A DNA stretch of 64,000 nucleotides from Candidatus Uhrbacteria bacterium. Lineage in GTDB: Bacteria > Patescibacteriota > Patescibacteriia > UBA9934. The notes below the pieces were generated by a model. The model ran no database searches, was not told the DNA's origin, and saw only the letters and a list, made by a program, of their open reading frames with translations. The translations under genes were made by a program, and so were the position numbers. The stretch covers positions 151,296 through 215,295 of the forward strand of contig CAWGHH010000001.1 of the NCBI GenBank assembly GCA_963822405.1. Reading direction: 5' to 3'. Shown in pieces: positions 824 to 50,287 of the stretch. Positions within the stretch are counted from its first letter, which is position 1. Each line of letters starts with the position of its first letter.

Positions 824-878
824 ATCCTCAACGAACGTCTTAAAAAGAATGTAAGTTTTTAAGCAGTTGGTTGAGGAT
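824..878. promoter_or_regulatory. 9-bp inverted repeat (ATCCTCAAC / GTTGAGGAT) around a 37-nt spacer, upstream of the 26..769 gene
   Basis: Perfect IR seen directly at 824-832 and 870-878; sits in the promoter region of a minus-strand gene. Confidence 0.3.
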
Positions 879-929
879 CCCGGCCAGACAATGGTGCATT
901 GTCAGCCGAGATCTTGGGTGCGGTTCCTG

Positions 930-1040
930 CTACCGTTTGGTCAGCAGGAACCAGACAATCTGGGCGTAGGCGAGTGCGATCAAGCACCCGCTTCCGCCGA
1001 AACAGCAGAGGACAAAGATGTCCCCGACCTGGTGGGCCAT
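930..1040 (-). CDS. 36-aa hydrophobic peptide (MAHQVGDIFVLCCFGGSGCLIALAYAQIVWFLLTKR)
   Basis: ATG at 1040 with GGAGG 6 nt upstream; single TM-like hydrophobic stretch; the longer 930..1220 ORF is probably an over-extension. Confidence 0.3.
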   Translation of the reverse strand: MAHQVGDIFVLCCFGGSGCLIALAYAQIVWFLLTKR

Positions 1041-1129
1041 AGCGGCCTCCGTGGTTGTTGTCGAGTGAACGCTCGACGCGTGTTTTGGACTCCGTCGGTT
1101 AATTCCAGACGGCATCCAGCCCGATTTTT

Positions 1130-1495
1130 TTAGCTCTCCAGGGCGGAGAGGAAGAGCGGGAGGAATTCCTCCCACCCTTTTGGGGCGTTCGCCCGCGGTT
1201 CCCGCAGGCACTTGGCCCATGTCTCCGCCGGCGCGGGCCAGTACGGCGCGCGCCCATCACCCAGCACCTGCCGCAACCGGCGGGCGACTTCCTCGTGGAA
1301 GCGCGCCTCTCCGGCCATGTAGACGCCGTGATCCCAGCCGAATTCCGGGCTCGCGGACCAGGAAAAGGCCTCGCCTACGCGAGCGGTTTGCGCCGCCTGC
1401 TGGTGCCGGGTGGCGGCCTCGGCGACCGTCATGAGGCCGTGGTTAACCACGGCCCTCGCCACTGCGGCGGCGATTTCTTTTTCAGTGCGGGCCAT
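1130..1495 (-). CDS. hypothetical protein (121 aa)
   Basis: ATG at 1495 preceded by GGAGG (ttGGAGGccatcATG); the ORF extends to a TTG at 1507. Confidence 0.5.
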   Translation of the reverse strand: MARTEKEIAAAVARAVVNHGLMTVAEAATRHQQAAQTARVGEAFSWSASPEFGWDHGVYMAGEARFHEEVARRLRQVLGDGRAPYWPAPAETWAKCLREPRANAPKGWEEFLPLFLSALES

Positions 1496-1541
1496 GATGG
1501 CCTCCAATCAAGGAACTCGATCGCGCATGAGCTGCGCAGTG

Positions 1542-1594
1542 ATCGGTCCTCATCTGATCACTCAAGGGAGAGAGTCCTTAAGTGATCGGATGAG
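1542..1594. promoter_or_regulatory. Conserved long hairpin in 5' leader, copy A (conserved stem arms, variable apex)
   Basis: Left arm ATCGGTCCTCATCTGATCACTC pairs with AGTGATCGGATGAG (14 bp, one G.U); apex forms an AAGG/CCTT mini-stem; copy B at 2652-2703. Confidence 0.45.
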
Positions 1595-1673
1595 AATCCC
1601 TGAAGTGGTCGAGTGTCGACGAGACTTCAGGGATTTAGAGTGACGTAGTTGCGGAGCGTTAGCCCCACACCCG

Positions 1674-1964
1674 TCACCCACGTTGGTACCAACCCCCGTT
1701 GTTGGTTCGGTGTCCCTCCTTATGGATGGACATGATTTCCTTCCGGAGCTCTTTTCGAGCCACTCCTGGGGTCATGCCTGCTGGCGGAGCGAGTACGAAA
1801 AATTCGTACACCGCTCCGCGGTGGCAGTCCCCGCAGTATCCGTCATCCCAACAGCAGCACATTGTGCCGCCGTGGTTCAGACGGCGCGTTTCCGCGCCTG
1901 TCTGGACGAACCCCTGCGCGAGCAACCGCGCGAGGATAAGGTGGGATCGGGTTTTAATGGACAT
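1674..1964 (-). CDS. Cys-rich small protein (96 aa; CCCWDDGYCGDCH cluster)
   Basis: ATG at 1964 with AGGAGG RBS; dense Cys/His cluster suggests metal binding. Confidence 0.5.
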   Translation of the reverse strand: MSIKTRSHLILARLLAQGFVQTGAETRRLNHGGTMCCCWDDGYCGDCHRGAVYEFFVLAPPAGMTPGVARKELRKEIMSIHKEGHRTNNGGWYQRG

Positions 1965-2150
1965 TTTTCCTCCTTAAGAGGTTGATCGGTATGTCATACC
2001 GAAGCGTATTGATACGATCTCAACGCTCTCAAAATCCACAACCTCCATCATGAATTTTGAGAACGCGCCCTGGTACCGCTGTGTGCGTGGGTACCAGAGC
2101 GAGCGAAATTTTTTGGCAGACTATTCCTGGTCTGCCGGCAGGTACCGCCT

Positions 2151-2378
2151 TTACCAGGCGGTGTTGTTGAAGAAGGACTCCATGTCCTCCTTCGACGCTG
2201 CCCCCATGGGGCAGTCGTGGCTGTCGAGCGCTTCTTTGCGCTCGGCTAAGAGGGACATTCCGTCCCTCTGGAGATTCACCACGGCATACGTGCCGTGGAA
2301 CCCGCGCCACCCACCCGTGAGGGCGAGGAGGACGGGGACGAGCTGGGCGCTCATTCCCCCGTTCGCCACCAGGATCAT
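2151..2378 (-). CDS. hypothetical small protein (75 aa)
   Basis: ATG at 2378, 10 nt downstream of the preceding gene stop (operon-like); contains a CPMG motif. Confidence 0.4.
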   Translation of the reverse strand: MILVANGGMSAQLVPVLLALTGGWRGFHGTYAVVNLQRDGMSLLAERKEALDSHDCPMGAASKEDMESFFNNTAW

Positions 2379-2388
2379 ATGATCCTGG

Positions 2389-2577
2389 TCAGTGGTCTCG
2401 GCCCGGAGGCGCCTTGACCGCCTCGGAGACGGTGGCCGTGGCCACCCCCTCCGGCGGGGCGATGCGGTCGTCGTCCATGACGACGACCGTCGGGGTTGTT
2501 TTTGGGAATTCACGGAGGGCATCCGCGAGGATGCCCTCCACGTTCCGACCATTGAACACCAACAGCTTGGTCGACAT
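2389..2577 (-). CDS. hypothetical small protein (62 aa)
   Basis: ATG at 2577 with GGAGG 5 nt upstream; the listed ORF start at 2643 is a GTG inside the leader hairpin. Confidence 0.4.
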   Translation of the reverse strand: MSTKLLVFNGRNVEGILADALREFPKTTPTVVVMDDDRIAPPEGVATATVSEAVKAPPGRDH

Positions 2578-2651
2578 GGCGACCTCCAATTGAGTGACTC
2601 GATTTTTCCTCATGACTTCCGGCAAACATTTGCCAGCGGTCACGGAATAAC

Positions 2652-2703
2652 ATCGGTCCTCATCTGATCACTCGAACGGAGGATGTTCGAGTAGTCGGAT
2701 GAG
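2652..2703. promoter_or_regulatory. Conserved long hairpin in 5' leader, copy B
   Basis: Same 22-nt left arm as copy A; right arm GAGTAGTCGGATGAGG; apex forms a CGAAC/GTTCG mini-stem. Confidence 0.45.
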
Positions 2704-2806
2704 GAGAGGGGACCAGGCGAAGTGTTCGCTATGTCCCCTCACACGTCACTTTTCTTTTTAGGCTTGCCGGTAGGTTGTGCCAAAGGAAAAGAAAGTGAGA
2801 AAGAAC

Positions 2807-3052
2807 CTAATTGGGACTACCAGTCCCCGCACTCATTGGCGGGGACTTCGAGCCAGCGAGCGTATAGCCCGCCGAGGTTTCCTTTCGTCCCTTCTCGCCG
2901 GTATCCGGCGACGGCCACGTACCAGCGGCCGTCCTGCTGGACGACCGCCCCTGCCTCGGGGCTCTGAGCCAACCGGGCTCAGGGCCATGCCCCGAGGGTC
3001 CGTTTTCGGATCCTTCCTGGGCGGCAAGTTTCATGATTTCGGTTTTTTCCAT
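2807..3052 (-). CDS. Gly/Ser/Pro-rich small ORF (81 aa) behind the shared 67-nt leader; frame uncertain
   Basis: ATG at 3052 immediately after the AGGAGGAAAAA RBS that ends the conserved leader; low-complexity product. Confidence 0.3.
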   Translation of the reverse strand: MEKTEIMKLAAQEGSENGPSGHGPEPGWLRAPRQGRSSSRTAAGTWPSPDTGEKGRKETSAGYTLAGSKSPPMSAGTGSPN

Positions 3053-3055
3053 TTT

Positions 3056-3122
3056 TTCCTCCTTGCACTTTTAGATGCAGGTAATCGGCCCCCGTGTGAT
3101 GGGGTATGGTGTGCCGACCGTC
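3056..3122. promoter_or_regulatory. 67-nt conserved 5' leader element, copy 1 (about 5 mismatches against copy 2)
   Basis: ttcctccttgcacttttagatgcaggtaatcggcccccgtgtgatggggtatggtgtgccgaccgtc; carries the RBS and a CCTTGCA...TGCAGG stem adjacent to it. Confidence 0.5.
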
Positions 3123-3336
3123 TCTGATGAGACGGGTTTAACAAATTCGGAGCAAAGTTGCCTCCGACATAAACTCTCCATCATGAAGAATTTGTGTCGA
3201 AGGACGAGGAAGAGCGGTGCATGTGCTCAATTCCTCGCCTACGGGTGCTAATCATGTCCTTGTTGGACTTCACCGCGCAGATGGGGCACGTGTCAGTTTC
3301 TATAGGAGCTGTAGCCCCAGAAACTGACAAAGAAGG

Positions 3337-3561
3337 CTATTCCTGCGTATTGCCGCAGGAAGGGCAGACGCCGACCTTGTCGGCGTTGCCGAAGGCGCCC
3401 AGATGGGCGCCGCAACTCCAGCACGAAACGTCGTGCTGGATGGTCAAAGGGGGGGCGACTATCACCCCCCCACACTCTGGGCACAAGAGAGCCCCTGAGC
3501 CGTGCCTTATCGGCACGACTCCTGCATTGTGCGTGCAGACCGGGCACTGGATGTGATCCAT
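3337..3561 (-). CDS. double zinc-ribbon small protein (74 aa; four CxxC pairs)
   Basis: ATG at 3561 with AGGAGG RBS inside leader copy 2; CPVC, CPEC, CWSC and CPSC motifs. Confidence 0.5.
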   Translation of the reverse strand: MDHIQCPVCTHNAGVVPIRHGSGALLCPECGGVIVAPPLTIQHDVSCWSCGAHLGAFGNADKVGVCPSCGNTQE

Positions 3562-3563
3562 TG

Positions 3564-3630
3564 TTCCTCCTTGCACTTTTAGGTGCAGGTAATCGGCTCC
3601 CGTATGATGGGGTATGGTTTGCCGACCGTC
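3564..3630. promoter_or_regulatory. 67-nt conserved 5' leader element, copy 2
   Basis: Near-identical to 3056-3122; sits immediately upstream of the zinc-ribbon ORF. Confidence 0.5.
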
Positions 3631-4107
3631 CCGGAAGGGGCGGATTTAGGAAATGGTCGAGCGCATCGGTCACACCGACAGCGTAGTGTCCGCGTCGATG
3701 TCGTTGATTAGGACCTCCGTGTCCTGATCCACTACCAGGCCGAGCCTGATGGCGAGTGCAACCTGTTGACAGGTCGCCAACGTCACGAGCCGGGTGCAGC
3801 CGGCGTGGTGATCGAACGAGAATCGACGCCCGGAGGCATCGACCTGGGGCCCTGCACGGCCCCATCGAGCGCGATCGAGTTCACACAGAGGTTCTCGAAG
3901 GAGACGACCTGGCCGAACACGAAGTTGATACGCATGGTGTCCTCACTCCCGGTTTCCGCCGGGTCGGGATTGTCACGGCTTATAACCAGCTTCGAACTTC
4001 CAGGTGTTGACGATCTCTCGTCAGGGGCTGCGGCAGGTCGAGAAACTCGACTAAACCGACTAACGCCTGAACACCTTTCCGTCCAAACTGGCTACTCGCC
4101 AATCAGC

Positions 4108-9205: not shown

Positions 9206-9849
9206 ATATACGCCAGATTTTTCTGGAATATTGGCGAGCGTTTCGGTTGCCTTAAGTGTGCCGTCAGCAGCAAAAATTTTAATATCAGCCGGGCCTCCGG
9301 GCCGGCGCCGGTAATTATTTCGGCCTTGCCGTCACCGTCTACATCGCCACAGGCAACGTTAACCCCTGTTCGAAGTTTTTCGTCATAAGCAAAAAAGTGC
9401 ACTTTGAGATATGTCCCATCGGCGGAGAACTCGCGCACTTGCGGACCACCGCCGTACATTGCGCCGGTGACGATGTCATTTGTACCGTCACCATTAAGAT
9501 CGCAAATTGCTACATTGACCCCGCTTTTCATACCGGTTGCGTACGAAGAAAATTCTTTGATAAGTGAGCCGTCGAGCCGCATAACTCGAACAAGCGGTTT
9601 GTTTCCTGAGCCAGCGCCAACGACGATTTCGCTTGTGCCATCAGCGCCAAGATCGCCTACGGCTACGCTACCGGCGGCGTCCCCGGCTTTATCAAACGGC
9701 CTGAACGAAGAGACCAGATCTCCGTTGGGTGAAAAGATTTTCAGCTCAGTGCCAGTTGGTGGAACTGGAGTTTTAGTTGTAGCCGCGAGTGAAGTTAGCG
9801 GTGAAAAGGCGGTACTTACAAGGACTGCGAGCACGATTGTGCGGTTCAT
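9148..9849 (-). CDS. FG-GAP/VCBS repeat protein with signal peptide; N-terminal part of a frameshifted FG-GAP plus L,D-transpeptidase gene
   Basis: Repeats GDLNGDGTNDIV and GDVDGDGKAEIITGAG; product turns to junk after ITGAGP at about 9290-9310, in a ccgggcctccgggccggcgccgg tract. Confidence 0.6.
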   Translation of the reverse strand: MNRTIVLAVLVSTAFSPLTSLAATTKTPVPPTGTELKIFSPNGDLVSSFRPFDKAGDAAGSVAVGDLGADGTSEIVVGAGSGNKPLVRVMRLDGSLIKEFSSYATGMKSGVNVAICDLNGDGTNDIVTGAMYGGGPQVREFSADGTYLKVHFFAYDEKLRTGVNVACGDVDGDGKAEIITGAGPEARLILKFLLLTAHLRQPKRSPIFQKNLAYMCSLATSTRTRRTKSWPHQ

Positions 9850-9919
9850 ATAGGCTGAGTATAGCCTGCGCTTGCCTTGCTGGTCGAGTTCTTGTATTCT
9901 ACTCGCGTTAACAGGTTAT

Positions 9920-9995
9920 GGGCTGATAGCTCAGTTGGTAGAGCATCTGCTTTGCAAGCAGAGGGTCCGGGGTTCGAGTCCCCGTCAGTCCACCA
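9920..9995 (+). tRNA. tRNA-Ala (anticodon TGC), CCA encoded
   Basis: Cloverleaf folded by hand: GGGCUGA acceptor, anticodon loop CUUUGCAAG, T-arm GGTTCGAGTCC. Confidence 0.9.
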
Positions 9996-10027
9996 AAAAA
10001 CCCACTAAAATCCGCCCTGGCGTTGTC

Positions 10028-10102
10028 GCCGGTCTGCGTTTCTCCTCGACGTACCACAAGTACGTCTCGTCGAAGCCTTGCCGGCTCCTAGCCAGGACGA
10101 AT
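10028..10102 (+). other. GC-rich structured element directly after tRNA-Ala (CCTGGC...GCCAGG outer stem, inner GACGTAC/GTACGTC hairpin) followed by a T-run
   Basis: Stems seen directly; followed by gaattttagagggttttttgtttgtg; could terminate the tRNA transcript or be a small RNA. Confidence 0.25.
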
Positions 10103-10225
10103 TTTAGAGGGTTTTTTGTTTGTGCGGCTTTGCCTCGATTAATCCTGAGATTGACCCTGAGAACGTTGACTTTTTGCTAAATTGGTGCTATTATTTTTGG
10201 TCTTAGCTAAACGACTGGAGGCTGT

Positions 10226-10768
10226 ATGCAAGACAAGGAAATCGCGAAACATAAGCGTGAAGAAATCGCGGAGCGCCATGAGCTGCTCGACAGCTTCCTG
10301 GCTTGGACGAAGACCGCGTCTGCTTGGTCTCTCGCTGGTCTGGGTACGATCGCGGTGGTGTTTGGAGCGGTGCAGGACGTATTGGCTCCGCTTTTGGCTT
10401 GGCTAGACGCGATCATGGGACCGCTCGACGAAATCCTCGTCGGAGCTACGCCCGAGATCATCATCCTTGAGTTTGTGCGTCGGTATACCGGCCACAACTT
10501 GATCGAACAGCTTCGGCTGAAGATCTCGGGGGCGCCTACATGGGTCTTGGCCGCTGTGGCGACCGGTACTGTGGGCGTAATGACTGGCACTGATCTGTCG
10601 GTCTACGTTCCAGTTATCGGGCTCGTTTCCATCCCGTTCCAGTTCATCGATCAGTACATCGTCGGTCTGCCAACGATCCTGATCGGGTTTGAACTTTACG
10701 AACGATGGAAGGCGAACCCCACCGAAATCAAACGTCTCGAAGACTCTACTTCCCGTTCGGGGGAGTAG
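10226..10768 (+). CDS. hypothetical membrane protein (180 aa), GC-rich relative to its flanks
   Basis: TTGACT-N17-TATTAT promoter at about 10172-10200; GGAGG RBS; several hydrophobic helices. Confidence 0.5.
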   Translation: MQDKEIAKHKREEIAERHELLDSFLAWTKTASAWSLAGLGTIAVVFGAVQDVLAPLLAWLDAIMGPLDEILVGATPEIIILEFVRRYTGHNLIEQLRLKISGAPTWVLAAVATGTVGVMTGTDLSVYVPVIGLVSIPFQFIDQYIVGLPTILIGFELYERWKANPTEIKRLEDSTSRSGE

Positions 10769-10786
10769 GGTCGTTGTTTTTATGTA

Positions 10787-10808
10787 GGGCCGACATCGAA
10801 GTCGGCCC
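10787..10808. repeat. REP palindrome copy 1 (GGGCCGAC-ATCGAA-GTCGGCCC); a half-copy at 10833-10848
   Basis: Perfect 8-bp stem with a 6-nt loop, TTACTA tail. Confidence 0.7.
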
Positions 10809-10844
10809 TTACTATGGGGATCGAAGAGTAGCAGTCGGCCCTTA

Positions 10845-11651
10845 CTACGAAAGCTGCGCGGGCGTGTACTTGGTTTCTGAGAAGTTTTTGTAGAGGTCTT
10901 CCTCGGCTATGATATTGCCAGTGCGTTTGTCGATTGTTTGCCGGCAAATAGTATTTTTTCGGAAATACTTACCGGTTTTTTCGTCTTGAATAAAGGCGTG
11001 GTCTTTTTCGAAAACGTGATAAGTCACTTTTGGTTCATGTTTAGATCGAATCTCGCCGTGCAGATATTTGCTGTCGAGCCACAAGCGCACTTCGAAAGTT
11101 TCAGCCGTGTCATTTTTGAGAGCGAAGTCGAGATAGTTGTAAAAAAGCGTCGCGCCGGTACCAAAGGGGACGACTCTGTTAGAGTCCGGGAATGCATCGA
11201 AGCTGTGATGATGTCGCTCGTGCACAGTGAGCGGCGAGTGAAGCGCTAACCAGTGAAGCATGTTGGCCACGGCGCAAAGGCCGCCACCAACTCCGCGCAT
11301 TACTTCACCATCAGATAGCATCAATCCCTCAAGGTAGCCCTTTCGCGTGGTGGGTTTCCCAACAAGTCGCCAAAACGAGTAGATCTCTCCGGGCTTAATC
11401 AGGATTTTGTCAGCCTTTTTTAGGGCGAGTGCCAGGTTTGTCACTTTGTTGTATTGCAAGGTCATGTCGACCCCCTCGAGTTTTCGCAAGAGCGTCGATT
11501 CATGGGCGTAGACCTTGTGCGGTAACGGTTTCGCCGCTTTTTTTGTGGCGAATTTTTGGGAACCGAAGTACCAAGACCATTGTCGTTTGAGTCTGAGACC
11601 GGTTACTGCGAGGGGATAGAGGAGGGGGTGAGATTTTCGAGAGATGGGCAT
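10845..11651 (-). CDS. VanW-family protein
   Basis: GVGGGLCAVANMLHW resembles the VanW GGGxCQ motif; start placed at M19 (11651) because the upstream part is REP-derived. Confidence 0.5.
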   Translation of the reverse strand: MPISRKSHPLLYPLAVTGLRLKRQWSWYFGSQKFATKKAAKPLPHKVYAHESTLLRKLEGVDMTLQYNKVTNLALALKKADKILIKPGEIYSFWRLVGKPTTRKGYLEGLMLSDGEVMRGVGGGLCAVANMLHWLALHSPLTVHERHHHSFDAFPDSNRVVPFGTGATLFYNYLDFALKNDTAETFEVRLWLDSKYLHGEIRSKHEPKVTYHVFEKDHAFIQDEKTGKYFRKNTICRQTIDKRTGNIIAEEDLYKNFSETKYTPAQLS

Positions 11652-11659
11652 AGGGGAGA

Positions 11660-11680
11660 GGGCCGACATAGAAGTCGGCG
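11660..11680. repeat. REP copy 2 (degenerate right arm)
   Basis: gggccgacatagaagtcggcg. Confidence 0.6.
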
Positions 11681-11695
11681 AGCAAAGATCTGAAG

Positions 11696-11717
11696 GGGCC
11701 GACATAGAAGTCGGCCC
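11696..11717. repeat. REP copy 3
   Basis: gggccgacatagaagtcggccc plus TTACTAC tail. Confidence 0.7.
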
Positions 11718-11723
11718 TTACTA

Positions 11724-12311
11724 CTAGGTGTCAGTATATATCACTGGGTGGCCGTCGTTCCACCATGTATTTGGGTTGTTGACGATATATTGCCGAATCC
11801 GATCGAGATCACCGTTTGCGCGGGTTATGTGTTCGTAATAATTCGTTTGCCATAATCGCCGATCGTAGTATTTGTGATTGATTTTATGCCATCGAATATA
11901 TTCATTGGTCGAAACCGATTTGAACCATTGCATCACCCGCGGTAAATCCGTCGGCGCCGGCAAATTGTTCGTCGTAGGGGCCGACTTCGATGTCGGCCCT
12001 TTCTCATCAAACATTTCCACAATCCCGTGAAAATGATCCGGCATCACCACGTATTCGTGTAAACGTACATTTGAAAATTTGTTTGGTATGGTTGCCCACC
12101 ATTCGGTGATCATTGAACCGAATGCGGTTAAACGGATGTTGACCAGAGGGCCGACATTGAAGTCGGCCCCTACGCCGCGATTGACGATTACGTCGCCGAA
12201 AATACCGTCGCGGTTGTTTGCGTTTAATGTCACGTAATACAATCCGGGTGTCGAATAATCAAATCCTGGCAATCGTGGATTCTTACGTCCAATTTCTTTC
12301 CATGAAAACAT
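11724..12311 (-). CDS. REP-associated tyrosine transposase (RAYT / TnpA_REP, IS200-like HuH Y1), carrying two in-frame REP insertions
   Basis: HuH motif MPDHFHGIV; Tyr motif RRLWQTNYYEHITRANGDLDRIRQYIVNNP, YafM-like; REP copies 4 and 5 lie inside the ORF without breaking the frame. Confidence 0.8.
   Translation of the reverse strand: MFSWKEIGRKNPRLPGFDYSTPGLYYVTLNANNRDGIFGDVIVNRGVGADFNVGPLVNIRLTAFGSMITEWWATIPNKFSNVRLHEYVVMPDHFHGIVEMFDEKGPTSKSAPTTNNLPAPTDLPRVMQWFKSVSTNEYIRWHKINHKYYDRRLWQTNYYEHITRANGDLDRIRQYIVNNPNTWWNDGHPVIYTDT
11978..11999. repeat. REP copy 4 (inverted orientation, loop TTCGAT) inside the RAYT CDS
   Basis: gggccgacttcgatgtcggccc; translates in-frame as KGPTSKSAPTT. Confidence 0.7.
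12148..12169. repeat. REP copy 5 inside the RAYT CDS
   Basis: gggccgacattgaagtcggccc; translates in-frame as RGVGADFNVGPLV. Confidence 0.7.
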
Positions 12312-12419
12312 AAAACCCCATTCGTGAGATCGATTATGCGTCGATCATTTACGCCTGGGGAGTTATGTATATTGCACCATGTTATTTGGGCGGTTCTGGG
12401 TGGTCTGTGCATAACCGCC

Positions 12420-12441
12420 GGGTCGACATAGAAGTCGACCC
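12420..12441. repeat. REP copy 6 (variant GGGTCGAC arms) abutting the stop codon of the dehydrogenase gene
   Basis: gggtcgacatagaagtcgaccc; gene stop at 12442-12444. Confidence 0.65.
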
Positions 12442-13428
12442 TTACTTCACCGCATTCGGTGGTGTCTTTCCGTCCAGGAACGCCAGAATGTTCTCGGCGG
12501 CGGCGCGGCTCATGGCCTGGCGAGCTTCGATGGATGCGCTGGCCGTGTGAGGCGTGAGGACGACGTTTGGGAGTTTGCGGAGATCGTAGGTATCTGTCGG
12601 ATCGCAGTCGATGAGTGGCTCGCACTCGTAAACGTCCAGGCCTGCGCCGGCGATGTCGCCATGGGCGAGAGCGACGACCAGCGCCTTCTCGTCGATAATT
12701 GGTCCGCGCGACGTGTTGATGATGTACGCCGTCTTTTTCATGAGCTTCAGTTCACGCTCGCCAATGAGATGGCGAGTAGACGGCAGTAGGGGAACATGCA
12801 AAGACACGAAGTCAGCATGTTTCAGGAGCTCGTCTTTTTCCATGAAGGTCGCCCCAAATGCTTGTTCGAATTTTTCGTTTGGTTTGATGTCGTTGTAGAT
12901 GATCTTGATCCCGAAACCGTCATGCATTCGTTTGGCTAATGCCTCGCCAATAGCACCTCCGCCAATAATGCCGAGTGTCTTGCCGATTACGTCGACGCCG
13001 AGGAACATCTTTGGACCCCAGCCCCTATACTTGCCGGCGCGCGTGAAATCATCAGTCTCGACTATTCTATGGGCGAGCGCAAAGATAAGCGCGATGGTGT
13101 GCTCAGCGACGGTTTCCGAAACCTCAGGAGCGCGAGCGTTTGTCACCATGATCCCGCGCTTTTTAGCAGCCTCGAGGTCAATGTTGTCGAACCCTACCGC
13201 GTAGTTCGCGATCATTTTCAATTGTTTTCCGGCTGCACGCATGATCGAATCGTCGATCTTGTCGGTCAGAAGCGAAAGGATGATGTCGACCCCTTTTACA
13301 TTCGATTTTAGAACGCCAACTGGAATATTTTTGTTTTCCTCGTACACTTTTACCTCAATATCTGGTCGAGCCCGGAGCATTTTCAATCCTTCATCTGGAA
13401 TATCACGAGTCACGAAAATCTTTATCAT
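12442..13428 (-). CDS. D-isomer-specific 2-hydroxyacid dehydrogenase (glycerate / hydroxypyruvate reductase-like)
   Basis: NAD-binding GIIGGGAIG; catalytic region ...HVPLLPSTRHLI...; C-terminal TPHTASAS motif. Confidence 0.85.
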   Translation of the reverse strand: MIKIFVTRDIPDEGLKMLRARPDIEVKVYEENKNIPVGVLKSNVKGVDIILSLLTDKIDDSIMRAAGKQLKMIANYAVGFDNIDLEAAKKRGIMVTNARAPEVSETVAEHTIALIFALAHRIVETDDFTRAGKYRGWGPKMFLGVDVIGKTLGIIGGGAIGEALAKRMHDGFGIKIIYNDIKPNEKFEQAFGATFMEKDELLKHADFVSLHVPLLPSTRHLIGERELKLMKKTAYIINTSRGPIIDEKALVVALAHGDIAGAGLDVYECEPLIDCDPTDTYDLRKLPNVVLTPHTASASIEARQAMSRAAAENILAFLDGKTPPNAVK

Positions 13429-13430
13429 AA

Positions 13431-14144
13431 TTACTCAATTTTTGAGAAGTCGAGAGACGCGCGAATAATTTTCCAACCATCTTCCACACCGGCTGGCGCA
13501 CCTTTCCAAAGATCAAATTCTACCTGGGTTACGTTTTTATCAGTCGCGTACCAGATAACTTCATTGATTTGATAATCTATAGCGCCGGAAAAAGCGCCTT
13601 TTGCTATGACTACACTCTTCCCATTGATAACTTCATCTGTGAGGGTCACTTTTTCGTCTGGTGGGTAGGCGGCTGTTACTAGATCTTTAAGTGTTTTGAC
13701 GCCCAGCTGCGGAAATTCGCTTTTTGGACGAGTGTCCATGTTGACTGCAAAAATTGGTCCACCACAGTCAACACACGAATGATCCATGAAACCCGGGCTT
13801 ACTACTACTGAATATGTTTGGATTGAATCTAGTGGAGTTAGTTTTTCTTCTCTCAGCTCGCCAACTGCAGACCAGCCGGCAGGATAGGAAAAACCAGGCC
13901 GACGAGTATTTGCTGAGACGACGATTGTCTTAGTTTTCGCGGCTTCTTCACAGGCTTTAGTAACTTTTTCTGATTCTATCTTGATTGCAGCACCGACCTC
14001 AGCCTTACAAGCCGCGGCAATTGCCACCGAGTCTGGCCTGTTAGCATTAAAGAGAACTATGAGAGCAATGGCGCCAACTGACAAGCAAAGAATTGCGCCA
14101 ATAAGCGAGAAAATTAGAAAGGGAGCTTTTGAGGAGGACGGCAT
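13431..14144 (-). CDS. membrane-anchored hypothetical protein (237 aa)
   Basis: N-terminal TM helix; no recognisable motif. Confidence 0.45.
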   Translation of the reverse strand: MPSSSKAPFLIFSLIGAILCLSVGAIALIVLFNANRPDSVAIAAACKAEVGAAIKIESEKVTKACEEAAKTKTIVVSANTRRPGFSYPAGWSAVGELREEKLTPLDSIQTYSVVVSPGFMDHSCVDCGGPIFAVNMDTRPKSEFPQLGVKTLKDLVTAAYPPDEKVTLTDEVINGKSVVIAKGAFSGAIDYQINEVIWYATDKNVTQVEFDLWKGAPAGVEDGWKIIRASLDFSKIE

Positions 14145-14333
14145 ATTATTTTATTGCAGCTACGGCTGCCTCGGCGCAGGCTTTTGCAATGGTGTTAGCG
14201 TCGACTCTTGTTTGATAAAGCTGAACTAATAATACGAGTACCGCAATAAGCAGACCAAGGTTCCATAAGAGGAACATGATGGCCCAGCCTTTGCGTTTGT
14301 TTGGTTGTTCGGGCATATGCCCCTAAGTATACG

Positions 14334-15359
14334 CTAGCGAGAGGTAAATATCCGAATCTCATCCATTAACTTCTTGTTCGGCCACTTAGTGAGGAGTCCG
14401 GCTTTTGCCCCAACGTGTTGAATAACGCTTTCGGAGTTGAGCGTGCCGATCTGCAAAGCCTCGTCTACAGTTAATCCTTTCGCTAGAGCTGAGACTACGC
14501 CGGAACCAAATGCGTCACCAGCGCCAGTGGTTGAAATTGGGTGAATGTTTCTGGTTCTGGCCGAGTATTTGATTTTTCCCATCGAGGCATACGCCCCGCG
14601 AGGTCCGTCGGTCACCACGTCGAGTGTAGCGGTCGACTTCGATGTCGACCCTTGCAAGGCCACAGCCAGTTCCTTCCCATCTTTGGTTGACAGTCCCGTC
14701 AGTGTCTGTGCTTCTTCGAGGTTCACAAACAACACGTCGACATCTTTCAGGAGTGGTCGAAGTTCAGATGCCTTTGCAAGCTCGCCTCCACCTGGGTTTA
14801 CGGAAATTTTTGCGCCGGTTTTTTTGGCGTGCGCGATAATTTTTGAAAGTAAGGCAATGTTCCCGGATAGGGAAGACACGTAATACCATTTCGCCGAAAG
14901 GGTTTTGAGTGGCACGTCGGCGAGTGAAAACTCGGCGGAGACACCGCGGTGAACAAGCGCGGTTCGTTCGCCAGTCGGTGCTGTTAGTAGCGTGCTGTAG
15001 GCGGTTTGCCCACCTTTAATGCGCTTGACCATGGTCGCGTCGATCTTGTAGCGAGCGAGATCGCGCAGAACGTCGTCTCCCGGTTCGTCATCACCAACTC
15101 GCGATACGATGCCGGTGACGAAACCGAGATTCGCAAACGTCGCGGCGGCATTCGTTGCTCCACCGCCCGTCGACAGAACCACTTGTTCGACGTCAATCTT
15201 TGTTCCGAGGGCGACACACTCGCCAACGCCAGTAGAAAATTTGTCGGATTTGAGGAGTTGGAATTCTTTCGAAAGTAAAAAGACGTCCCGAACAGCGGAA
15301 CCGATGGTGATGATGTCGTACATATGCCCCCATTCTACACCGCGGCATTTCTTTTCCAA
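14334..15359 (-). CDS. PfkB-family carbohydrate kinase (ribokinase-like) with an in-frame REP insertion
   Basis: TTGAGDAFGSGVVSALAKG signature; REP copy 7 encodes GSTSKSTAT in a loop. Confidence 0.8.
   Translation of the reverse strand: MEKKCRGVEWGHMYDIITIGSAVRDVFLLSKEFQLLKSDKFSTGVGECVALGTKIDVEQVVLSTGGGATNAAATFANLGFVTGIVSRVGDDEPGDDVLRDLARYKIDATMVKRIKGGQTAYSTLLTAPTGERTALVHRGVSAEFSLADVPLKTLSAKWYYVSSLSGNIALLSKIIAHAKKTGAKISVNPGGGELAKASELRPLLKDVDVLFVNLEEAQTLTGLSTKDGKELAVALQGSTSKSTATLDVVTDGPRGAYASMGKIKYSARTRNIHPISTTGAGDAFGSGVVSALAKGLTVDEALQIGTLNSESVIQHVGAKAGLLTKWPNKKLMDEIRIFTSR
14630..14651. repeat. REP copy 7 (GGTCGAC variant, inverted) inside the PfkB CDS
   Basis: cggtcgacttcgatgtcgaccc. Confidence 0.65.
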
Positions 15360-45215: not shown

Positions 45216-46616
45216 CTAATATGCCCCTTTTCTGAAAATAACGGCCACTGGTGTTTTTATGAGGATAATGAGATCCAGGAACGGACTCCAGTTCTCAATA
45301 TAGTACATATCTAGGCGGACTTCGTCTTCAAAGTCAAGGTTTGCCCGGCCGCTAATTTGGGATAAGCCTGTAATTCCTGGTTTAATTGTTAATACGCGTC
45401 GTTCATTTGGTTGATACCTAGCTACTTCTTCTGGCAAATGTGGGCGAGGACCGACTAGACTCATTGAACCGGCGAGTACTGCATAAAACTGTGGTATCTC
45501 GTCAAGGCTCCACTTTCTGATGAATCGACCAACCCGAGTCACTCGAGGGTCGTCGGCGAGCTTGAAAAGCGGTGTTCCTTCACGTTCATTGCCGTACTTT
45601 TTAATGAAGGCTGGATCGAACCGTAGTTTGTGTGCCTCCTTAACCATCGAGCGGAACTTCATGAAGGGGAACGGCTGGCCTCGCATGCCGACCCGTTTGA
45701 TGGTGAAGAAAATCGGCCCTGGGTTTTCTATGAAGATAGCGAGTGCAATCAGGAATTGAAGGGGGAGCGAGACGATGATGAGAACTAGGGATATGATGAT
45801 ATCAAACGAACGTTTGTAGATTGCGCCCCAGCCATCAAGTGGAGTTTTCGGCACTTCGATCACCGGTTTTCCGCCAAAAGTAAAAACTATAGGACGCAGT
45901 GTGCTACCGGGAAATAAGTCGGCCGTGTACAGAAAAGACGCATGTTCAACATCTGAAAAAGTTTTAATAGCAGTGATCTCTGATCGTTCGGCGTCAGTAT
46001 TTGCCAGAAGAATAAGATCCAGTCTGTTTTCGTTTTTTAACCGCTTTAGTCTTTCTGCTGTTTCTCCACTGAAGTGCGCGGTGTGATAGCTAGTAACGTA
46101 GCCAAGGGTTGGATTTTCTTTGAAGTAGGCCACCAGTTCATGGGCATCTTTTGTCTTTCCAATAACGGCCACGTACTGAACTCCAAAGCCAAACTTTCTC
46201 AAGGTGCGTTGAATAATTCGAACGGCCAAGCGCTCGATTAGCAGGAAAACCACGGAGAATAACCAGCCAGCCAGCACAATAAAACGAGAGTCGAACAGTT
46301 CGCGCGAGAAGAAGGCGATAGCGAGGACTACGGCAATGCTAGCGGAAGACGCGACCACTACACGAACCGACTCGCTCGGTATGCTTCGCGGGCGAATGGC
46401 GTAAAGACCAGAGAGTGAGAAGACGATCACGTAAATGGCGGCGATAGGCAGGACGAGCGCCAGGAACTCGCTAAAAGTCAGCTCAAAGGTTACTGGTCTG
46501 AACGCCGTAAATACAGCCGCGAAACGTAAAGAATACGCCGCTATTCCTGCCAGGAGCAGAGTTAGATAGTCAAGCGGAACAAACAAGGCCGCGAACGCAA
46601 GATCAGCGCGTTTCAT
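45216..46616 (-). CDS. undecaprenyl-phosphate sugar phosphotransferase (WbaP/CpsE-type bacterial sugar transferase)
   Basis: Multiple N-terminal TM helices; C-terminal PGITGLSQISGRANLDFEDEVRLDMYYIENWS. Confidence 0.85.
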   Translation of the reverse strand: MKRADLAFAALFVPLDYLTLLLAGIAAYSLRFAAVFTAFRPVTFELTFSEFLALVLPIAAIYVIVFSLSGLYAIRPRSIPSESVRVVVASSASIAVVLAIAFFSRELFDSRFIVLAGWLFSVVFLLIERLAVRIIQRTLRKFGFGVQYVAVIGKTKDAHELVAYFKENPTLGYVTSYHTAHFSGETAERLKRLKNENRLDLILLANTDAERSEITAIKTFSDVEHASFLYTADLFPGSTLRPIVFTFGGKPVIEVPKTPLDGWGAIYKRSFDIIISLVLIIVSLPLQFLIALAIFIENPGPIFFTIKRVGMRGQPFPFMKFRSMVKEAHKLRFDPAFIKKYGNEREGTPLFKLADDPRVTRVGRFIRKWSLDEIPQFYAVLAGSMSLVGPRPHLPEEVARYQPNERRVLTIKPGITGLSQISGRANLDFEDEVRLDMYYIENWSPFLDLIILIKTPVAVIFRKGAY

Positions 46617-46663
46617 AGTTGAGCTTATTTTAACATGAAAAACCGCCCTTGCGGACGGTTTTT

Positions 46664-47178
46664 CTGCTTGGAGAACTAGTAAGCCGAATTCTGTCGAGCC
46701 TCTACGTGCTTTCGGACGTAAAGATTCGTGACGATCATCTCTCTAGTTCTGACATTGCTGTCAGACTCATGCGAGCTACCTAATTTGCTCTTGCACCACG
46801 ATGGGTTTGCCGCACCCGTGCGTTACCGCGCGGGTGAGAGGAGTGGGCTCCTCACTTTTCACTGTACTTCACCATAGCTTGCGCCGCAGGTGAGTATCAT
46901 AGTCTCTGTTGCGTCTTTCTTGTGGTTTCCCACAAGTCTTGACCTTTGAGATTCTTGCGTTTCCCAAAGACTTTCCCTGGGCTTCCTGAGGCCTGTGGGG
47001 GACAGCGCGAAGCCGCCATCCAGTCCCTCACCGGCATCACTTTTTCCCGGTTGCTGTTAGCAACACCGTTTCTCATTCATGCATTGCTACATGAAGGGTG
47101 TTCGGACTTTCCTCCCCCTAACGTAGCTCCGAGCGTTAGCAAGGGGCGAAGTGGGGGCGATCATCTTGTTTTCCAAGC
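46664..47178 (-). ncRNA. rnpB: RNase P RNA, bacterial type
   Basis: P4 5' strand GGAGGAAAGUCCGAAC (rc of 47101-47123); P4 3' strand GACAGAAUUCGGCUUA (rc of 46679-46696), pairing with the bulged U; P1 GCUUGGA/UCCAAGC; GGUAACGC and GGGUGCGG blocks; terminator 46638-46663. Confidence 0.7.
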
Positions 47179-47184
47179 GAGGCA

Positions 47185-47213
47185 AGTATAGCAAAAATAG
47201 GCGAATATGTAAA
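47185..47213 (-). promoter_or_regulatory. rnpB promoter, TTTACA-N17-TGCTATACT
   Basis: Minus strand reads TTTACATATTCGCCTATTTTTGCTATACT; predicted start coincides with the P1 5' end. Confidence 0.55.
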
Positions 47214-47293
47214 GAAAAAGAAAGCTCCGCGTCATCTTACCCAGAGGGGGAAAATGCCGCGGAGCGGAAGGGGGGGACGGGGCTCTCTGCCCT

Positions 47294-47726
47294 CTAATCC
47301 CGCACGATCGGGCGCGAGAAAGAGGACGGGATGCTCCGCACGTTGTGTAACGGATTGGTCGACGGCTTGGGGGTCGGATCGTCGTCGATCTTGATGTTGC
47401 AGAGCTTGTCATCGAGGTCGTGAACGAACTTCGGCACCGCCATGGCGTACTGCTTCATGTTGTCGATCTCGGGTTTGTCAGTGCCCTCGATACGATCGAG
47501 GATGCTGCGGTACGTCGCGACGTTGTGGGGCTTGCCGTCGCAGTACGCACGGACGATGCCTTTGTGCATGACCGCGATCGACTTCCGCTCCCAATTGCCG
47601 GTGTCATCGAGCCGTTCGATGGTGTCCTCGATGTCCGCGAGCAGATGGTAGAATTCGGAGTCGCCGGTTGACGGTGGTGCAATGTCTGATTTGGCGGGAG
47701 TAGCCGTGATGATCTTTTTGGTCACG
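47294..47726 (-). CDS. hypothetical protein (GC-rich island), GTG start
   Basis: GGAAGG RBS before the GTG at 47726. Confidence 0.4.
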
Positions 47727-47981
47727 GGACCTTCCTGTGGTGGGGTTCTAACCGTTGTTGGGAACAAATTCCTTCCGGGGAGGAAGAAACGCTCGTAAAC
47801 GGTATACAAAAAATGGCTAACCGTCAACGTCCAGATAGGGTCACAGGACTGACTGCGGTTACGGGTAAGGGCGGGGCTTGCCCTGCGCCTATATATGAAA
47901 GCACCCGCCCGCCTGATGAGGAGTCAGGCGGACGGGCACAGAGTACGTCGTACGCGGACGACGTGTCATGGACAAGCGGTA

Positions 47982-48520
47982 CTAGGCCGTGATGAGCGTG
48001 CTGAGCGTCTCGGTGATGGCTTCAGCGGACGTCAGGCGATAGAGCACGGCGACGTTCTTCTCGGAGCGGATCTGGCGTGCCAGCGCCTCGATCTGCTCGA
48101 TCTTGCTGTACAGATCCTTCAGCTTCATGGTGAACGGCGCACAGTGCCGAACAAAGCCGGTGGTCAGCGTAAGAATGCGCGGGATCATCTCCCGCCGGGC
48201 ATCATCAGACATCTTCTGATCAAGGAAGCTGAGGCAATCATTGATCTTGATCTTCTCGCCTTCCTTGCGCCGTTCGCGCATCTGGGCAACGATCAGCATG
48301 TCCGTTTCGAGCTCAGCGCTGGTCGCGAGCCCATGGAACTGCCGATCCTTCTGCGCCTGAATGCGCATGTTCAGGAGCGCCAGGGTGACCTTTTCCTCGA
48401 CCGTCTTGGCGAACGAGGCATCGGCCGCGATTTCCGCGGTCAACTCGTTTTGCGCTTGCCGTTTGGGGTGGCGCGCAGGCGGACGGGGAACGGAGTCAGT
48501 GGTGTCGTCATCGGACGACA
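47982..48520 (-). CDS. hypothetical alpha-helical protein (GC-rich island)
   Basis: ATG at 48520; imperfect hairpin at 47911-47945 downstream of the stop. Confidence 0.4.
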
Positions 48521-48710
48521 TAGCGGGGTGATCCAAGGCAGTACTCCGGTGGGAATCCCTTCCGTGGGACGGTTGGGAATTGTTGGTTGCGCTCAGAAAG
48601 AGCCCCCAAATACTATAACTCGCACCGGCTAATGTCAATAATTTGGCTAATAATAGAAAAACGCCCGACCCCCGAAGGAGACGAGCGTAGAGCCAAGCCC
48701 ATTTAGCGAA

Positions 48711-48977
48711 TCAGTCCTTCTTGAGGACGTACTTCGCTCGTGGTTCCTGGGCGAGCAGCATTACGCCACTCATGAGCAGAAGCCCCGTAATTAGGGCAAG
48801 TCGCCCTGGCGTTTCCACCTGCATTCCCGTGCCGGTCATATTCCAGCTGACGAGAAACGAGTAGATCGCTCCCGAAGTGACCGAGAAGACCAATCCGGAG
48901 ACGATCATGATCACGAGCCAGCTCATGGCCGACCGCACGATTAGCTGCCAGTCTTTCTGGTTCACGAAGACCTCCAA
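48711..48977 (-). CDS. small membrane protein (88 aa)
   Basis: Two hydrophobic helices. Confidence 0.4.
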   Translation of the reverse strand: MEVFVNQKDWQLIVRSAMSWLVIMIVSGLVFSVTSGAIYSFLVSWNMTGTGMQVETPGRLALITGLLLMSGVMLLAQEPRAKYVLKKD

Positions 48978-48980
48978 GGT

Positions 48981-49157
48981 TTAGATGTCGAGTTTTACTC
49001 GGATAGCTTCGCAGGTCGGAACAATCGGCATTGCGAGTGCAAGACAGATCGTCTGACCGTCAATCTCGACGCCCCACAAGGAGTGGAGTCCGAAGAGACC
49101 GAGGAGACCGGAGATACCGGCCAATGCGAGTACACCGAGAATCTGGAAAATGGACAT
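48981..49157 (-). CDS. small membrane protein (58 aa)
   Basis: ATG at 49157 with GAGGG RBS. Confidence 0.35.
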   Translation of the reverse strand: MSIFQILGVLALAGISGLLGLFGLHSLWGVEIDGQTICLALAMPIVPTCEAIRVKLDI

Positions 49158-49303
49158 TTTTCCCTCAAGAAGAGGTTTGATTTGGAAGGGCAGGCGTAAT
49201 GCCTGCAGGGCAGAAAGAGGACTGTATCTCACGTAGGCACAATAACAATAATAGCACTTTTTGACCCTTTTGTCAAGGGAAAAAGTGCTATTTGTGGCTA
49301 GAG

Positions 49304-50287
49304 TTAGACTAATTTTAGGCCCAGTTTTTCTTTTACTTTTTCAATGTTTACGCCTGCAATCATGCTCGCTCGAGCACTGCCTTCTTTGATCACTTTTTCT
49401 AGCTCGTCGCGATGCTTCAGGTATCCTGCGATCTCGGCCTGAAGAGGGGTCAAGTGAAGAACTAGAGCCTCAGCGACGTCATCTTTTAGATCCTTCATGC
49501 CTTTATTTATGTATTCGTCAGCAACCGCGAAAACAGTCCGTTTCTCGACTAGCGACAAAATCGACAATAGGTTCGCGACTCCTGGTCGAGCTTCGTCATA
49601 TCTGACTGTCGGTTCAGAATCAGTGACAGCTGAGCGAACCTTTTTGCGAATTACATCTGCGTCATCCATAAGCGAGATATAGCTCTTTGGAGCGGGGGAG
49701 CTCTTGCTCATTTTCTTCTCTGGGTTGTCGAGCGCCAGAATCTTCGCGCCATGTTCGGCAATTATCGGTTTTGGGATTACGAACGTCTCGCCAAAGTCGC
49801 GGTTGAATCGTTCGGCCAAGTCTCGAGCTAGTTCGATATGTTGCTTCTGATCAACACCAACCGGTACGGCGTCAGTGTTGTACAGGAGAATGTCGGCCGC
49901 CATTAAAACTGGATAAGTGAAAAGACCAACAGATACATTCTGTCCTTTGCCGGTCGCTTTGTCTTTGAACTGGGTCATTCTTTCTAGTTCGCCCATTCTC
50001 GCCACACATTGCAACAACCAGCCAAGCTCGGCATGAGCTGGAATTCTTGACTGTTGAACAATGGTCGCCTTCTTCTGGTCTATTCCAGCTGCGAGATACG
50101 CCGCTGTCGCAAATGCGATGTTGTTGCTCAGTTCGACGGGATTCTGCGGAACTGTGATTGCATGTAGATCAACAATCAGCATGGTCAGGTCATGTTCTTT
50201 CTGGAGTTCGACCGCCGGTTTCAGCGCGCCAAAGTAATTGCCGATGTGTAATATATTCGTTGGTTGAATTCCAGAAAGAATACGCAT
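49304..50287 (-). CDS. trpS: tryptophanyl-tRNA synthetase
   Basis: HIGH motif HIGNYFGAL and KMSKS. Confidence 0.9.
   Translation of the reverse strand: MRILSGIQPTNILHIGNYFGALKPAVELQKEHDLTMLIVDLHAITVPQNPVELSNNIAFATAAYLAAGIDQKKATIVQQSRIPAHAELGWLLQCVARMGELERMTQFKDKATGKGQNVSVGLFTYPVLMAADILLYNTDAVPVGVDQKQHIELARDLAERFNRDFGETFVIPKPIIAEHGAKILALDNPEKKMSKSSPAPKSYISLMDDADVIRKKVRSAVTDSEPTVRYDEARPGVANLLSILSLVEKRTVFAVADEYINKGMKDLKDDVAEALVLHLTPLQAEIAGYLKHRDELEKVIKEGSARASMIAGVNIEKVKEKLGLKLV

Follow-up and report, generated by a model that had tools for sequence, protein, structure and literature searches.

A diverged, expanded class A RNase P RNA beside a hypervariable GC3-rich gene slot in a Candidatus Uhrbacteria genome

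A 64,000-nucleotide (nt) stretch of the Candidatus Uhrbacteria assembly GCA_963822405.1 (contig CAWGHH010000001.1, positions 151,296 to 215,295; hereafter the window, whose own numbering is used throughout) raises two questions at a single locus: whether an unannotated and unusually long minus-strand RNA at ~47178-46664 is the RNase P RNA, encoded by rnpB, and how the GC-rich DNA with orphan genes that lies between its promoter and the tryptophanyl-tRNA synthetase (TrpRS) gene, trpS, came to be there. The initial annotation of this DNA, made from the sequence alone, had proposed a long rnpB beside which a foreign island may have inserted. We conclude with high confidence that two independent things lie side by side at this locus, an expanded class A rnpB and a vertically inherited, hypervariable slot between trpS and rnpB.

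The RNA at this locus is a genuine class A RNase P RNA that falls below the standard search cut-off. A default Rfam scan of the whole 64-kb window reported five tRNAs and zero RNase P matches; a sensitive Rfam scan of 46500-47400 returned RNaseP_bact_a (RF00010) at 83.9 bits with E = 9.2e-26, an E-value from which we conclude that the match did not arise by chance and which bears out the identification made in the initial annotation. The gathering score of RF00010 is 100 bits, an operational threshold and not a biological feature, and the lack of annotation is accounted for because 83.9 bits lies below it. The Rfam alignment begins at 47031, where it takes a fortuitous GGGAAAGU for P4, and therefore leaves out the first 150 nt of the actual 5′ end. 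Two features described below, the added helices and the absence of P16, P17 and P6, push the RNA under the cut-off and cause the model to misplace its 5′ half. The signatures by which the gene had been recognized are found on the minus strand as quoted: the P4 5′ strand motif GGAGGAAAGTCCGAAC (= GGAGGAAAGUCCGAAC) at 47101-47116, with the bulged U inside it, the P4 3′ strand motif GACAGAATTCGGCTTA (= GACAGAAUUCGGCUUA) at 46681-46696, and P1, formed by the pairing of 47178-47168 with 46676-46666. The proposed length also held, with rnpB running for ~515 nt (46664-47178, minus strand) from the predicted start at ~47178 to the foot of the terminator. It is preceded by a sigma-70-like promoter at 47185-47213 (minus strand; TTTACA-17-TATACT with a TG extension, that is, an extended -10), whose CTTTACA...TAnnnT arrangement is kept in all relatives, and is followed by an intrinsic terminator at 46632-46664 (minus strand), an inverted repeat forming a hairpin at 46664-46637 with a U run, which is likewise kept in relatives.

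We aligned six orthologous rnpB sequences and merged the RNAalifold consensus with the class A register taken from covariance model (CM) alignment into a hand-built fold, in which the RNAalifold placement of the P9/P10/P11 and P5/P15 pairings was partly replaced by the CM-derived register. In this fold 95.1% of cells across the six orthologues are standard pairs, and 69 of the 149 pairs show compensatory changes on both sides. Controls in which the pairing partners were slid by 1-3 columns gave 36-41% paired cells and 14-18 pairs with double changes, and none of 500 shuffles attained the observed pairing values.

The fold contains the core elements of class A RNAs. The catalytic-domain helices P1, P2, P3, P5, P15 and P18 are all present, P18 with a GCAA loop and covariation in 5 of its 7 pairs, as is the P4 pseudoknot with its conserved GAGGAAAGUCC...ACAGAA..CGGCUUA strands and bulged U. 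The P4 5′ strand motif is invariant in the six orthologues, and each of the 6 sequences forms all 8 pairs of P4; here AA/UU stands in place of the class A consensus GG/CC, a double change that keeps the pairing. The specificity domain is represented by P7-P12 with invariant copies of the conserved J11/12 (AACAGAGA) and J12/13 (GUGAAAAG); 4 of the 5 pairs of P7 covary, and the P8 loop is of the UAAC type. The class A hallmarks P13 and P14 were placed at 46813-46853 (minus strand) by CM alignment and fold, with 3 of 6 and 5 of 10 pairs covarying, respectively, and with an L14 loop that reads GGUAAC in the window and GGUAAC or GGUGAC across the orthologues. P15 (46773-46790, minus strand; a fold helix also placed by CM alignment) is closed by an 11-nt loop, AAAUUAGGUAG, that carries GGU. 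This GGU fits the tRNA genes of the window, four of five of which encode CCA, and, as judged from the sequences, can pair with the encoded 3′-CCA. The P15-P16-P17 arm and the P6 pseudoknot are missing, 34 model positions being replaced by 0 nt; class A membership nevertheless stands, because Lui, Nielsen and Arkin (2021; PMC8172020) describe the loss of P16 and P17 from RNase P RNAs, like that of P13 and P14, as ‘not unusual’.

The extra length had been ascribed in the initial annotation to lineage-specific insertions, and we were able to map these as helices supported by covariation. Between P5 and P7 lies a P5.1-like hairpin with a GCAA tetraloop (47074-47096, minus strand), in which 8 of 9 pairs are compensatory and which corresponds to an 18-nt insertion straight after P5 in the full-length CM alignment of the orthologue in the relative L125. 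P9 is enlarged to 73 nt with a UUCG tip (46977-47049, minus strand), has 8 of 22 pairs covarying and 83-100% of cells paired, and in the L125 alignment takes up 65 nt where the class A model has a 6-nt loop. Two further hairpins separate P10 from P11: helix X (46944-46969, minus strand), with 7 of 8 pairs compensatory and a conserved loop, AACGCAAGAA, and helix Y in a P10.1-like position (46913-46943, minus strand), with a GAAA tetraloop, covariation in all 7 inner pairs and a pair, 255:285, that switches from G-C to U-A. Finally, a P19-like hairpin between P2 and the P4 3′ strand (46695-46728, minus strand) has 8 of 10 pairs covarying and matches the ~19 extra nt that the L125 alignment places before the P4 3′ strand. 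By compensatory changes, these lineage-specific helices rank among the best-supported of the fold.

The rnpB RNA is thus a class A core minus P16, P17 and P6, plus helices at the positions of class B P5.1 and P10.1. With RF00010, the best-scoring Rfam family, it shares P1-P5 with the P4 pseudoknot and bulged U, P7-P12 with J11/12 and J12/13, P13/P14, the GGU of P15 and the GNRA loop of P18, and three of its orthologues score above the RF00010 cut-off; it differs in its ~515 nt against a 367-position model, in lacking P16, P17 and P6, and in its additional P5.1-like helix, 73-nt P9, two P10-P11 hairpins and P19. Class B RNAs, of the Firmicutes type, have helices P5.1, P10.1 and P15.1 and a closed L15, and have no P13/P14 and no P6, P16 or P17, features reportedly set out by Haas et al. 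in 1996. The window RNA resembles them in its helices at the P5.1 and P10.1 positions, in a closed L15 hairpin in place of a P15-P16 internal loop and in the absence of P6, P16 and P17. It does not belong to class B (RF00011), since it keeps P13 and P14 and has no P15.1, and class A comes out best in Rfam clan competition. The likeness to class B is positional and probably convergent. As an RNA with a class A core, a closed L15 and helices where class B has them, it provides a data point on the swapping of peripheral elements around a fixed core.

We found relatives through the neighbouring TrpRS, which is 92% identical in L124, 89% in L122 and L127 and 87% in L125 and L126, and, at greater distance, 73% in L128, 71% in L129 and 66% in the Uhrbacteria genome L184. 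In all of them rnpB occupies the corresponding site, with a Bac_transf sugar transferase gene downstream and the same promoter and terminator arrangement. Scores against RF00010 are 116.2 bits in L129, 115.5 in L125 and 105 in L128, and are sub-threshold in L122 and L124, so that the rnpB family of this clade straddles the Rfam cut-off (84-116 bits). The distance between the two P4 strands is 421 nt in the window and 415-442 nt in the group with 71-92% TrpRS identity, a range taken from contigs that reach both strands (those of L127 and L126 end inside rnpB), and is 331 nt in L184, the Uhrbacteria outgroup. For comparison, a scan of a genome collection with the P4 motif plus 2 nt yielded 120 rnpB loci from many phyla, with no close relative among them; in the 99 other bacterial rnpB genes that have the same P4 variant the median P4-to-P4 distance is 328 nt, and 8 of the 99 reach 415 nt or more. 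The clade-specific architecture was not seen in any of the 120 sampled loci, from which the loop motif of helix X is also absent, nor is it present in L184.

The rnpB of the window is a clade-specific expanded variant of the diverged RNase P RNAs of the Candidate Phyla Radiation (CPR), a phenomenon that has already been published. Lui, Nielsen and Arkin (PMC8172020) found RNase P RNA seemingly missing in 10 of 35 circularised CPR genomes until they used lower score thresholds; because of large helix extensions or missing helices, most copies had to be refolded by hand. The patterns that they report are loss of P12, of P13/P14 or of P18 and an extended P15, with the CCA-binding motif lost in two-thirds of their genomes. 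The window RNA resembles these RNAs in its host group, its sub-threshold Infernal score, its helix extensions and its missing P16 and P17. It is set apart by the reported patterns themselves, in that it keeps P12-P14, P18 and the GGU motif and carries its expansions in P9 and in the P5/P7 and P10/P11 junctions.

A score under the Rfam cut-off, a model that misaligns the 5′ half and the loss of P16, P17 and P6 would also be expected of a decayed, non-functional copy, with tRNA processing left to another gene or to a protein-only RNase P. We regard this as extremely improbable: every universally conserved module is present in full and invariant among the orthologues, the helices change by compensation, the mark of a structure kept by purifying selection, a promoter and a terminator of its own, both conserved, flank the gene, no second RNase P match occurs in the 64-kb window, and the same situation has been documented in other CPR genomes (PMC8172020). 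As predicted from its sequence and fold, the rnpB product would be the catalytic RNA of RNase P, trimming the 5′ leaders of pre-tRNAs, and the gained peripheral helices presumably brace the fold in place of the lost module. As RNase P RNA serves as a marker of genome completeness, a clade whose copies score 84-116 bits will be annotated inconsistently, and the six-sequence, covariation-checked alignment could seed a clade-specific model.

We turn to the DNA upstream of the rnpB promoter. In 100-nt windows its GC content reaches 0.58-0.66 against ~0.48 in the surroundings, and is raised from ~47220 to ~49230. The initial annotation had placed here a GC-rich block with two hypothetical minus-strand genes; the block is real and its genes are on the minus strand, but it is larger than proposed, a slot of 47250-49231, as delimited by composition and by the loss of DNA similarity to relatives, in which codon-position GC reveals four minus-strand genes, A to D. 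GC at the third codon position (GC3) in the neighbouring housekeeping genes is 0.49-0.50. ORF (open reading frame) A (47294-47725, minus strand) encodes an orphan protein of 143 amino acids (aa) from a GTG at 47725 that is preceded by an AGGAAGG ribosome-binding site, the mechanical start of the ORF being a TTG at 47827; its GC1/2/3 values are 0.54/0.40/0.81. ORF B (47982-48521, minus strand; 179 aa), of a lineage-specific family, has corresponding values of 0.59/0.41/0.80. ORFs C (48711-48965, minus strand; 84 aa, GTG start after GGAGG, GC3 ~0.76) and D (48981-49157, minus strand; 58 aa, GC3 0.61) encode small membrane proteins, and D is also called as a 58-aa gene on a public contig.

The slot genes are served by three recognizable promoters, those of D, B and A, and by terminators behind C, B and A. 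The D promoter, TTGACA-17-TATTAT, lies at 49248-49292 (minus strand) within a perfect 13-nt inverted repeat and is kept in relatives. ORF C follows D by 12 nt behind its GGAGG, shows no promoter of its own and is probably co-transcribed with D. ORF B has a promoter, TTGACA-17-TAGTAT, and a 5′ leader at 48522-48638 (minus strand), an architecture found again upstream of its homologue P0125, and an intrinsic terminator with a 16-pair stem and a T run at 47901-47939 (minus strand). For ORF A these are a promoter, TTGACG-17-TATACC, and a 5′ leader with a CUUCC-UCCC-GGAAG hairpin at 47726-47826 (minus strand), and a terminator-like hairpin, GCUCCGCG/CGCGGAGC, at 47224-47265 (minus strand), which exists in a short-loop version in L122 and whose U run overlaps the rnpB -35 box.

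The strand of these genes matters, since a public gene caller, applied to a Logan contig with 99.98% identity to the window, picked ORFs on the plus strand at 47895-48632 and 47420-47671, and GC-rich DNA does yield long ORFs in several frames. That these are the true genes, or that none of the GC-rich ORFs is a gene, is nonetheless hardly credible. The order GC3 > GC1 > GC2 is found in minus-strand frames only; in the plus-strand frames GC is highest at codon position 1, where it peaks at 0.75-0.85, and we rejected these ORFs as shadows. It is the minus strand that carries the promoters, ribosome-binding sites and terminators, the caller itself chose the strand parallel to trpS in the relatives, and B folds with confidence (see below) and keeps its motifs across the 11 clusters of its family. 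The public caller thus took the antisense strand for A and B, and the present analysis exposes these mis-called genes. In L124, a 98-aa ORF (10566-10862) was called across rnpB itself. Over 21 kb the window and the Logan assembly of the same organism show 5 differences, a single one of which falls within the slot, a count that is uninformative on hypermutation.

Had the GC-rich genes arrived as a foreign island, some relatives would be expected to lack them, and this is where the island proposal failed. The order RNase J - trpS - GC3-rich orphan genes - rnpB - sugar transferase is found in 7 of 7 relatives with DNA sequence (TrpRS identity 92% to 66%), and the gene map of an eighth relative has small unannotated genes in the same trpS-rnpB place. 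None of the seven has an empty site; homologous or analogous GC3-rich genes fill the slot, and relatives thus carry such genes natively in this position. Slot genes have a GC3 of 0.61-0.98 overall, always above that of the housekeeping genes of their own genome (0.71-0.81 vs 0.51-0.55 in L124, 0.73-0.83 vs 0.57-0.63 in L122, 0.73-0.91 vs 0.58-0.63 in L125 and 0.89-0.98 vs 0.82-0.88 in L184), and lie on the strand parallel to trpS. Two of the window genes have syntenic homologues: B aligns over 151 columns (hhalign probability 93.8%, E 1.7e-7) with the profile of the genes found in synteny in L122, L124, L126 and L127 and is 39% identical to P0125, encoded on a short contig with the same leader and the same downstream promoter, and A shares 33% identity with the L127 gene in synteny (12846-13238; E 6e-17). 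For C and D the syntenic matches are weak, with 28% identity between C and L124:8642-8947 and 38-42% between D and the first gene in the slots of L122 and L125.

The idea of an island integrated at rnpB, stable-RNA genes being integration hotspots, drew on a composition far from that of the host (GC3 0.8 vs 0.49), on orphan genes next to a stable-RNA gene and on a further GC3-rich orphan of the window that adjoins a tRNA gene, and in being a compositionally deviant orphan block beside such a gene the slot does resemble known islands. We consider it very improbable here, and a recent insertion largely refuted. Apart from the occupancy of the slot in all relatives, down to 66% TrpRS identity, and the syntenic homologues of B and A, no integrase, recombinase, phage or defence family was matched by the four slot proteins in Pfam, PHROG, NCBIfam or PADLOC, and a repeat search of 46600-49400 gave short chance-level matches only, none of them at the borders, with no att-like duplication. 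The borders coincide with conserved promoters and terminators, the regulatory DNA inside the block is conserved, and the block adjoins the promoter, at the 5′ side of rnpB, whereas in classical integration it is the 3′ end of a stable-RNA gene that serves as target. A single ancient insertion, though conceivable, would by now be expected to have lost its foreign composition. What survives of the island idea is that the trpS-rnpB position is a long-lived hotspot of gene turnover, and the comparison corrects the tempting reading of an ‘island next to a stable-RNA gene’.

Within the slot, what is conserved is the regulatory DNA. Similarity of the DNA to relatives ends at 49232 and resumes at 47230-47249, and in between the alignment with L124, the closest relative, is confined to regulatory pieces. 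The stretch 48731-48534, which spans the end of C, the C terminator and the B promoter and leader, is 74% identical over 199 nt; 47830-47719, with the A promoter and leader, is 78% identical over 116 nt, though the ORFs behind this second leader are unrelated. The proteins encoded by the neighbours, among them a surface protein resembling a type IV secretion system (T4SS) pilin, are 62-95% identical to those of the closest relative; A-D are at most 42% identical or undetectable. As trpS is 79% identical to that of L124 in DNA and 92% in protein, most DNA differences must be silent and silent sites would be near saturation, and at this distance near-neutral divergence alone would render the ORFs unalignable. 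We picture the slot as a vertically inherited position with small transcription units in the same orientation as their neighbours; its promoters, leaders and terminators would be under purifying selection, and its coding DNA would diverge at about the neutral rate or be replaced, with reading frames that stay open, keep a foldable protein (B) and keep a GC3 well above genome level.

The leader at the A position contains a hairpin, GCGUUUCUUCCUCCCGGAAGG, whose stem covaries (UACC/GGUA in L122, GCGUCC/GGACGC in L125) and whose 5′ arm resembles an anti-Shine-Dalgarno sequence, and this hairpin could be a translational control element of the anti-Shine-Dalgarno type. The combination of hairpin, CCUCCC loop region and AGGAAGG downstream, at 47726-47797 in the window, is found at 12465 in L122, 9803 in L124, 12376 in L125 and 12778 in L127, once per genome and always in the slot. 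At the other end of the slot, the perfect 13-nt inverted repeat AATAGCACTTTTT / AAAAAGTGCTATT (49250-49292) flanks the -35 box of ORF D and is conserved in relatives, possibly as an operator.

The proteins themselves are nearly without relatives. None of the four has a match in Pfam, PHROGs, NCBIfam or PADLOC, profile searches of PDB sequences with A and with B gave no matches, and no signal peptide is visible by eye in A or B. The B family comprises 11 clusters at 50% identity among 1.84 billion representative proteins; a word-indexed homology search found no matches for B alone, and two proteins only with the family profile. An AlphaFold2 (AF2) model of B (predicted local distance difference test, pLDDT, 86; predicted template modelling score, pTM, 0.79) shows a disordered basic N-terminus followed by an all-helical domain of eight helices.

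Several observations weigh against the reading of an expanded class A rnpB beside a vertically inherited slot. On the side of the RNA, the window copy itself stays under the Rfam gathering score, and P4, P5, P10 and P11 are invariant in the six sequences and rest on the class A consensus and not on covariation. On the side of the slot, the fold of B has no match in PDB or BFVD, and a single-sequence AF2 run on A gave no usable model (pLDDT 44.7). Behind the A-position leader one finds at least three ORF families without profile-profile similarity to one another (probabilities <1%), and the distribution of these families is incongruent with the housekeeping phylogeny; since incongruent families stand behind one leader, replacement or differential loss must also occur. 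Vertical inheritance with rapid divergence, moreover, leaves the persistently high GC3 unexplained, the slot-wide excess being the opposite of what relaxed constraint would produce.

These last points lead to an alternative in which the slot is an array of units of conserved leader plus variable ORF. Homologous recombination within leaders, terminators and flanks would exchange the ORFs between related genomes or with an unseen mobile pool, and GC-biased gene conversion at this recombination hotspot would raise GC3. Such cassette exchange would account for leaders that are conserved before ORFs that cannot be aligned and for one leader type before at least three unrelated ORF families, for the occurrence of family 1 in the window and L127 and of family 2 in L124 and L125/L126, at odds with housekeeping similarity, and for a GC3 that is raised in every genome whatever its base composition; another GC3-rich block of the window also has paralogous leaders. 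Yet we found no near-identical cassette in different flanks of two genomes and no donor element, since viral contigs held no relative of A and the B family has only 11 clusters in 1.84 billion proteins; differential loss from a larger ancestral array, such as the 11 genes in L184, would explain the incongruence equally well. We treat cassette exchange as a tentative alternative to vertical inheritance with rapid divergence, the less probable of the two. Differential loss, leader-based cassette exchange and GC-biased gene conversion remain as candidate processes acting on the slot.

Comparable variable loci are replacement-type flexible genomic islands and, among gene families with conserved upstream regions, the variable lipoprotein loci of Mycoplasma and the upstream-homology-box families of Borrelia. 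The slot resembles these in its fixed position between conserved genes and in coding parts that are divergent or replaced behind conserved 5′ regulatory DNA, and in L184 several of its genes have lipoprotein-signal-like N-termini. In contrast to these systems, no repeats, invertible promoters or silent cassettes were seen in it, and its GC3 excess is not a known feature of any of them. A literature search on GC3-rich, fast-evolving orphans in Patescibacteria found nothing relevant. The puzzle, then, is that in every genome GC3 is highest in just those genes of the region that evolve fastest, and that these stand behind conserved leaders. With low confidence, we suggest that the slot encodes lineage-specific, rapidly evolving accessory proteins, possibly related to the envelope or to host interaction, a guess made because C and D are small membrane proteins and because the L184 slot has lipoprotein-like N-termini as seen by eye.

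Similar DNA occurs elsewhere in the window. A second GC-rich block at 26-3576 contains at least five minus-strand GC3-rich orphan ORFs (26-769, 1130-1507, 1674-1964, 2389-2643 and 3337-3576, the last with a zinc ribbon) and paralogous leaders, namely a 94-nt repeat at 3053-3146 and 3561-3654 that is 86% identical between copies and an exact 22-mer at 1542-1563 and 2652-2673. At 30048-31139, a 363-aa GC3-rich minus-strand orphan is flanked on one side by a 956-aa gene and on the other by a weak tRNA-Ile(UAU) copy (31338-31411; 40.5 bits, no encoded CCA), a stronger tRNA-Ile(UAU) being present at 58657. The equivalent position varies among relatives: L130 (neighbour 90% identical) has a different, 136-aa GC3-rich ORF, L131 (88%) has none adjacent, and no tRNA is found there in either genome. 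The pattern of conserved leader, divergent ORF and high GC3 seen next to rnpB seems to recur at 26-3576 and may recur at 30048-31139. It is conceivable, and more doubtful than cassette exchange in the trpS-rnpB slot by itself, that all three are arrays of leader/ORF cassettes whose coding parts are exchanged or renewed through recombination in the conserved leaders and terminators, while GC-biased gene conversion keeps GC3 high. If so, they would make up a previously undescribed variable-gene system of the ultra-small Patescibacteria, a functional counterpart of the loci for antigenic variation or the replacement islands known in other bacteria, and recombination-driven turnover of this kind would bear on how genome-reduced episymbionts generate variability.

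The neighbourhoods of the more distant relatives add some further observations. In L184, whose genome has a GC content of 64%, the slot (9236-15244; 6.8 kb) holds 11 orphan genes with a GC3 of 0.89-0.98, several of which have similar N-termini (MTLxLLFAC...) that look like lipoprotein signals by eye and are followed by Asp/Thr-rich regions. A PDDEXK_3 gene is inserted between RNase J and trpS in L124 and L128. Two features of L128 (GCA_943359345.1; 500-1955 and 11015-11371) are a gene of the 23S_rRNA_IVP family that follows straight after trpS and a diversity-generating retroelement with a reverse transcriptase and bAvd that lies 8 kb from trpS.

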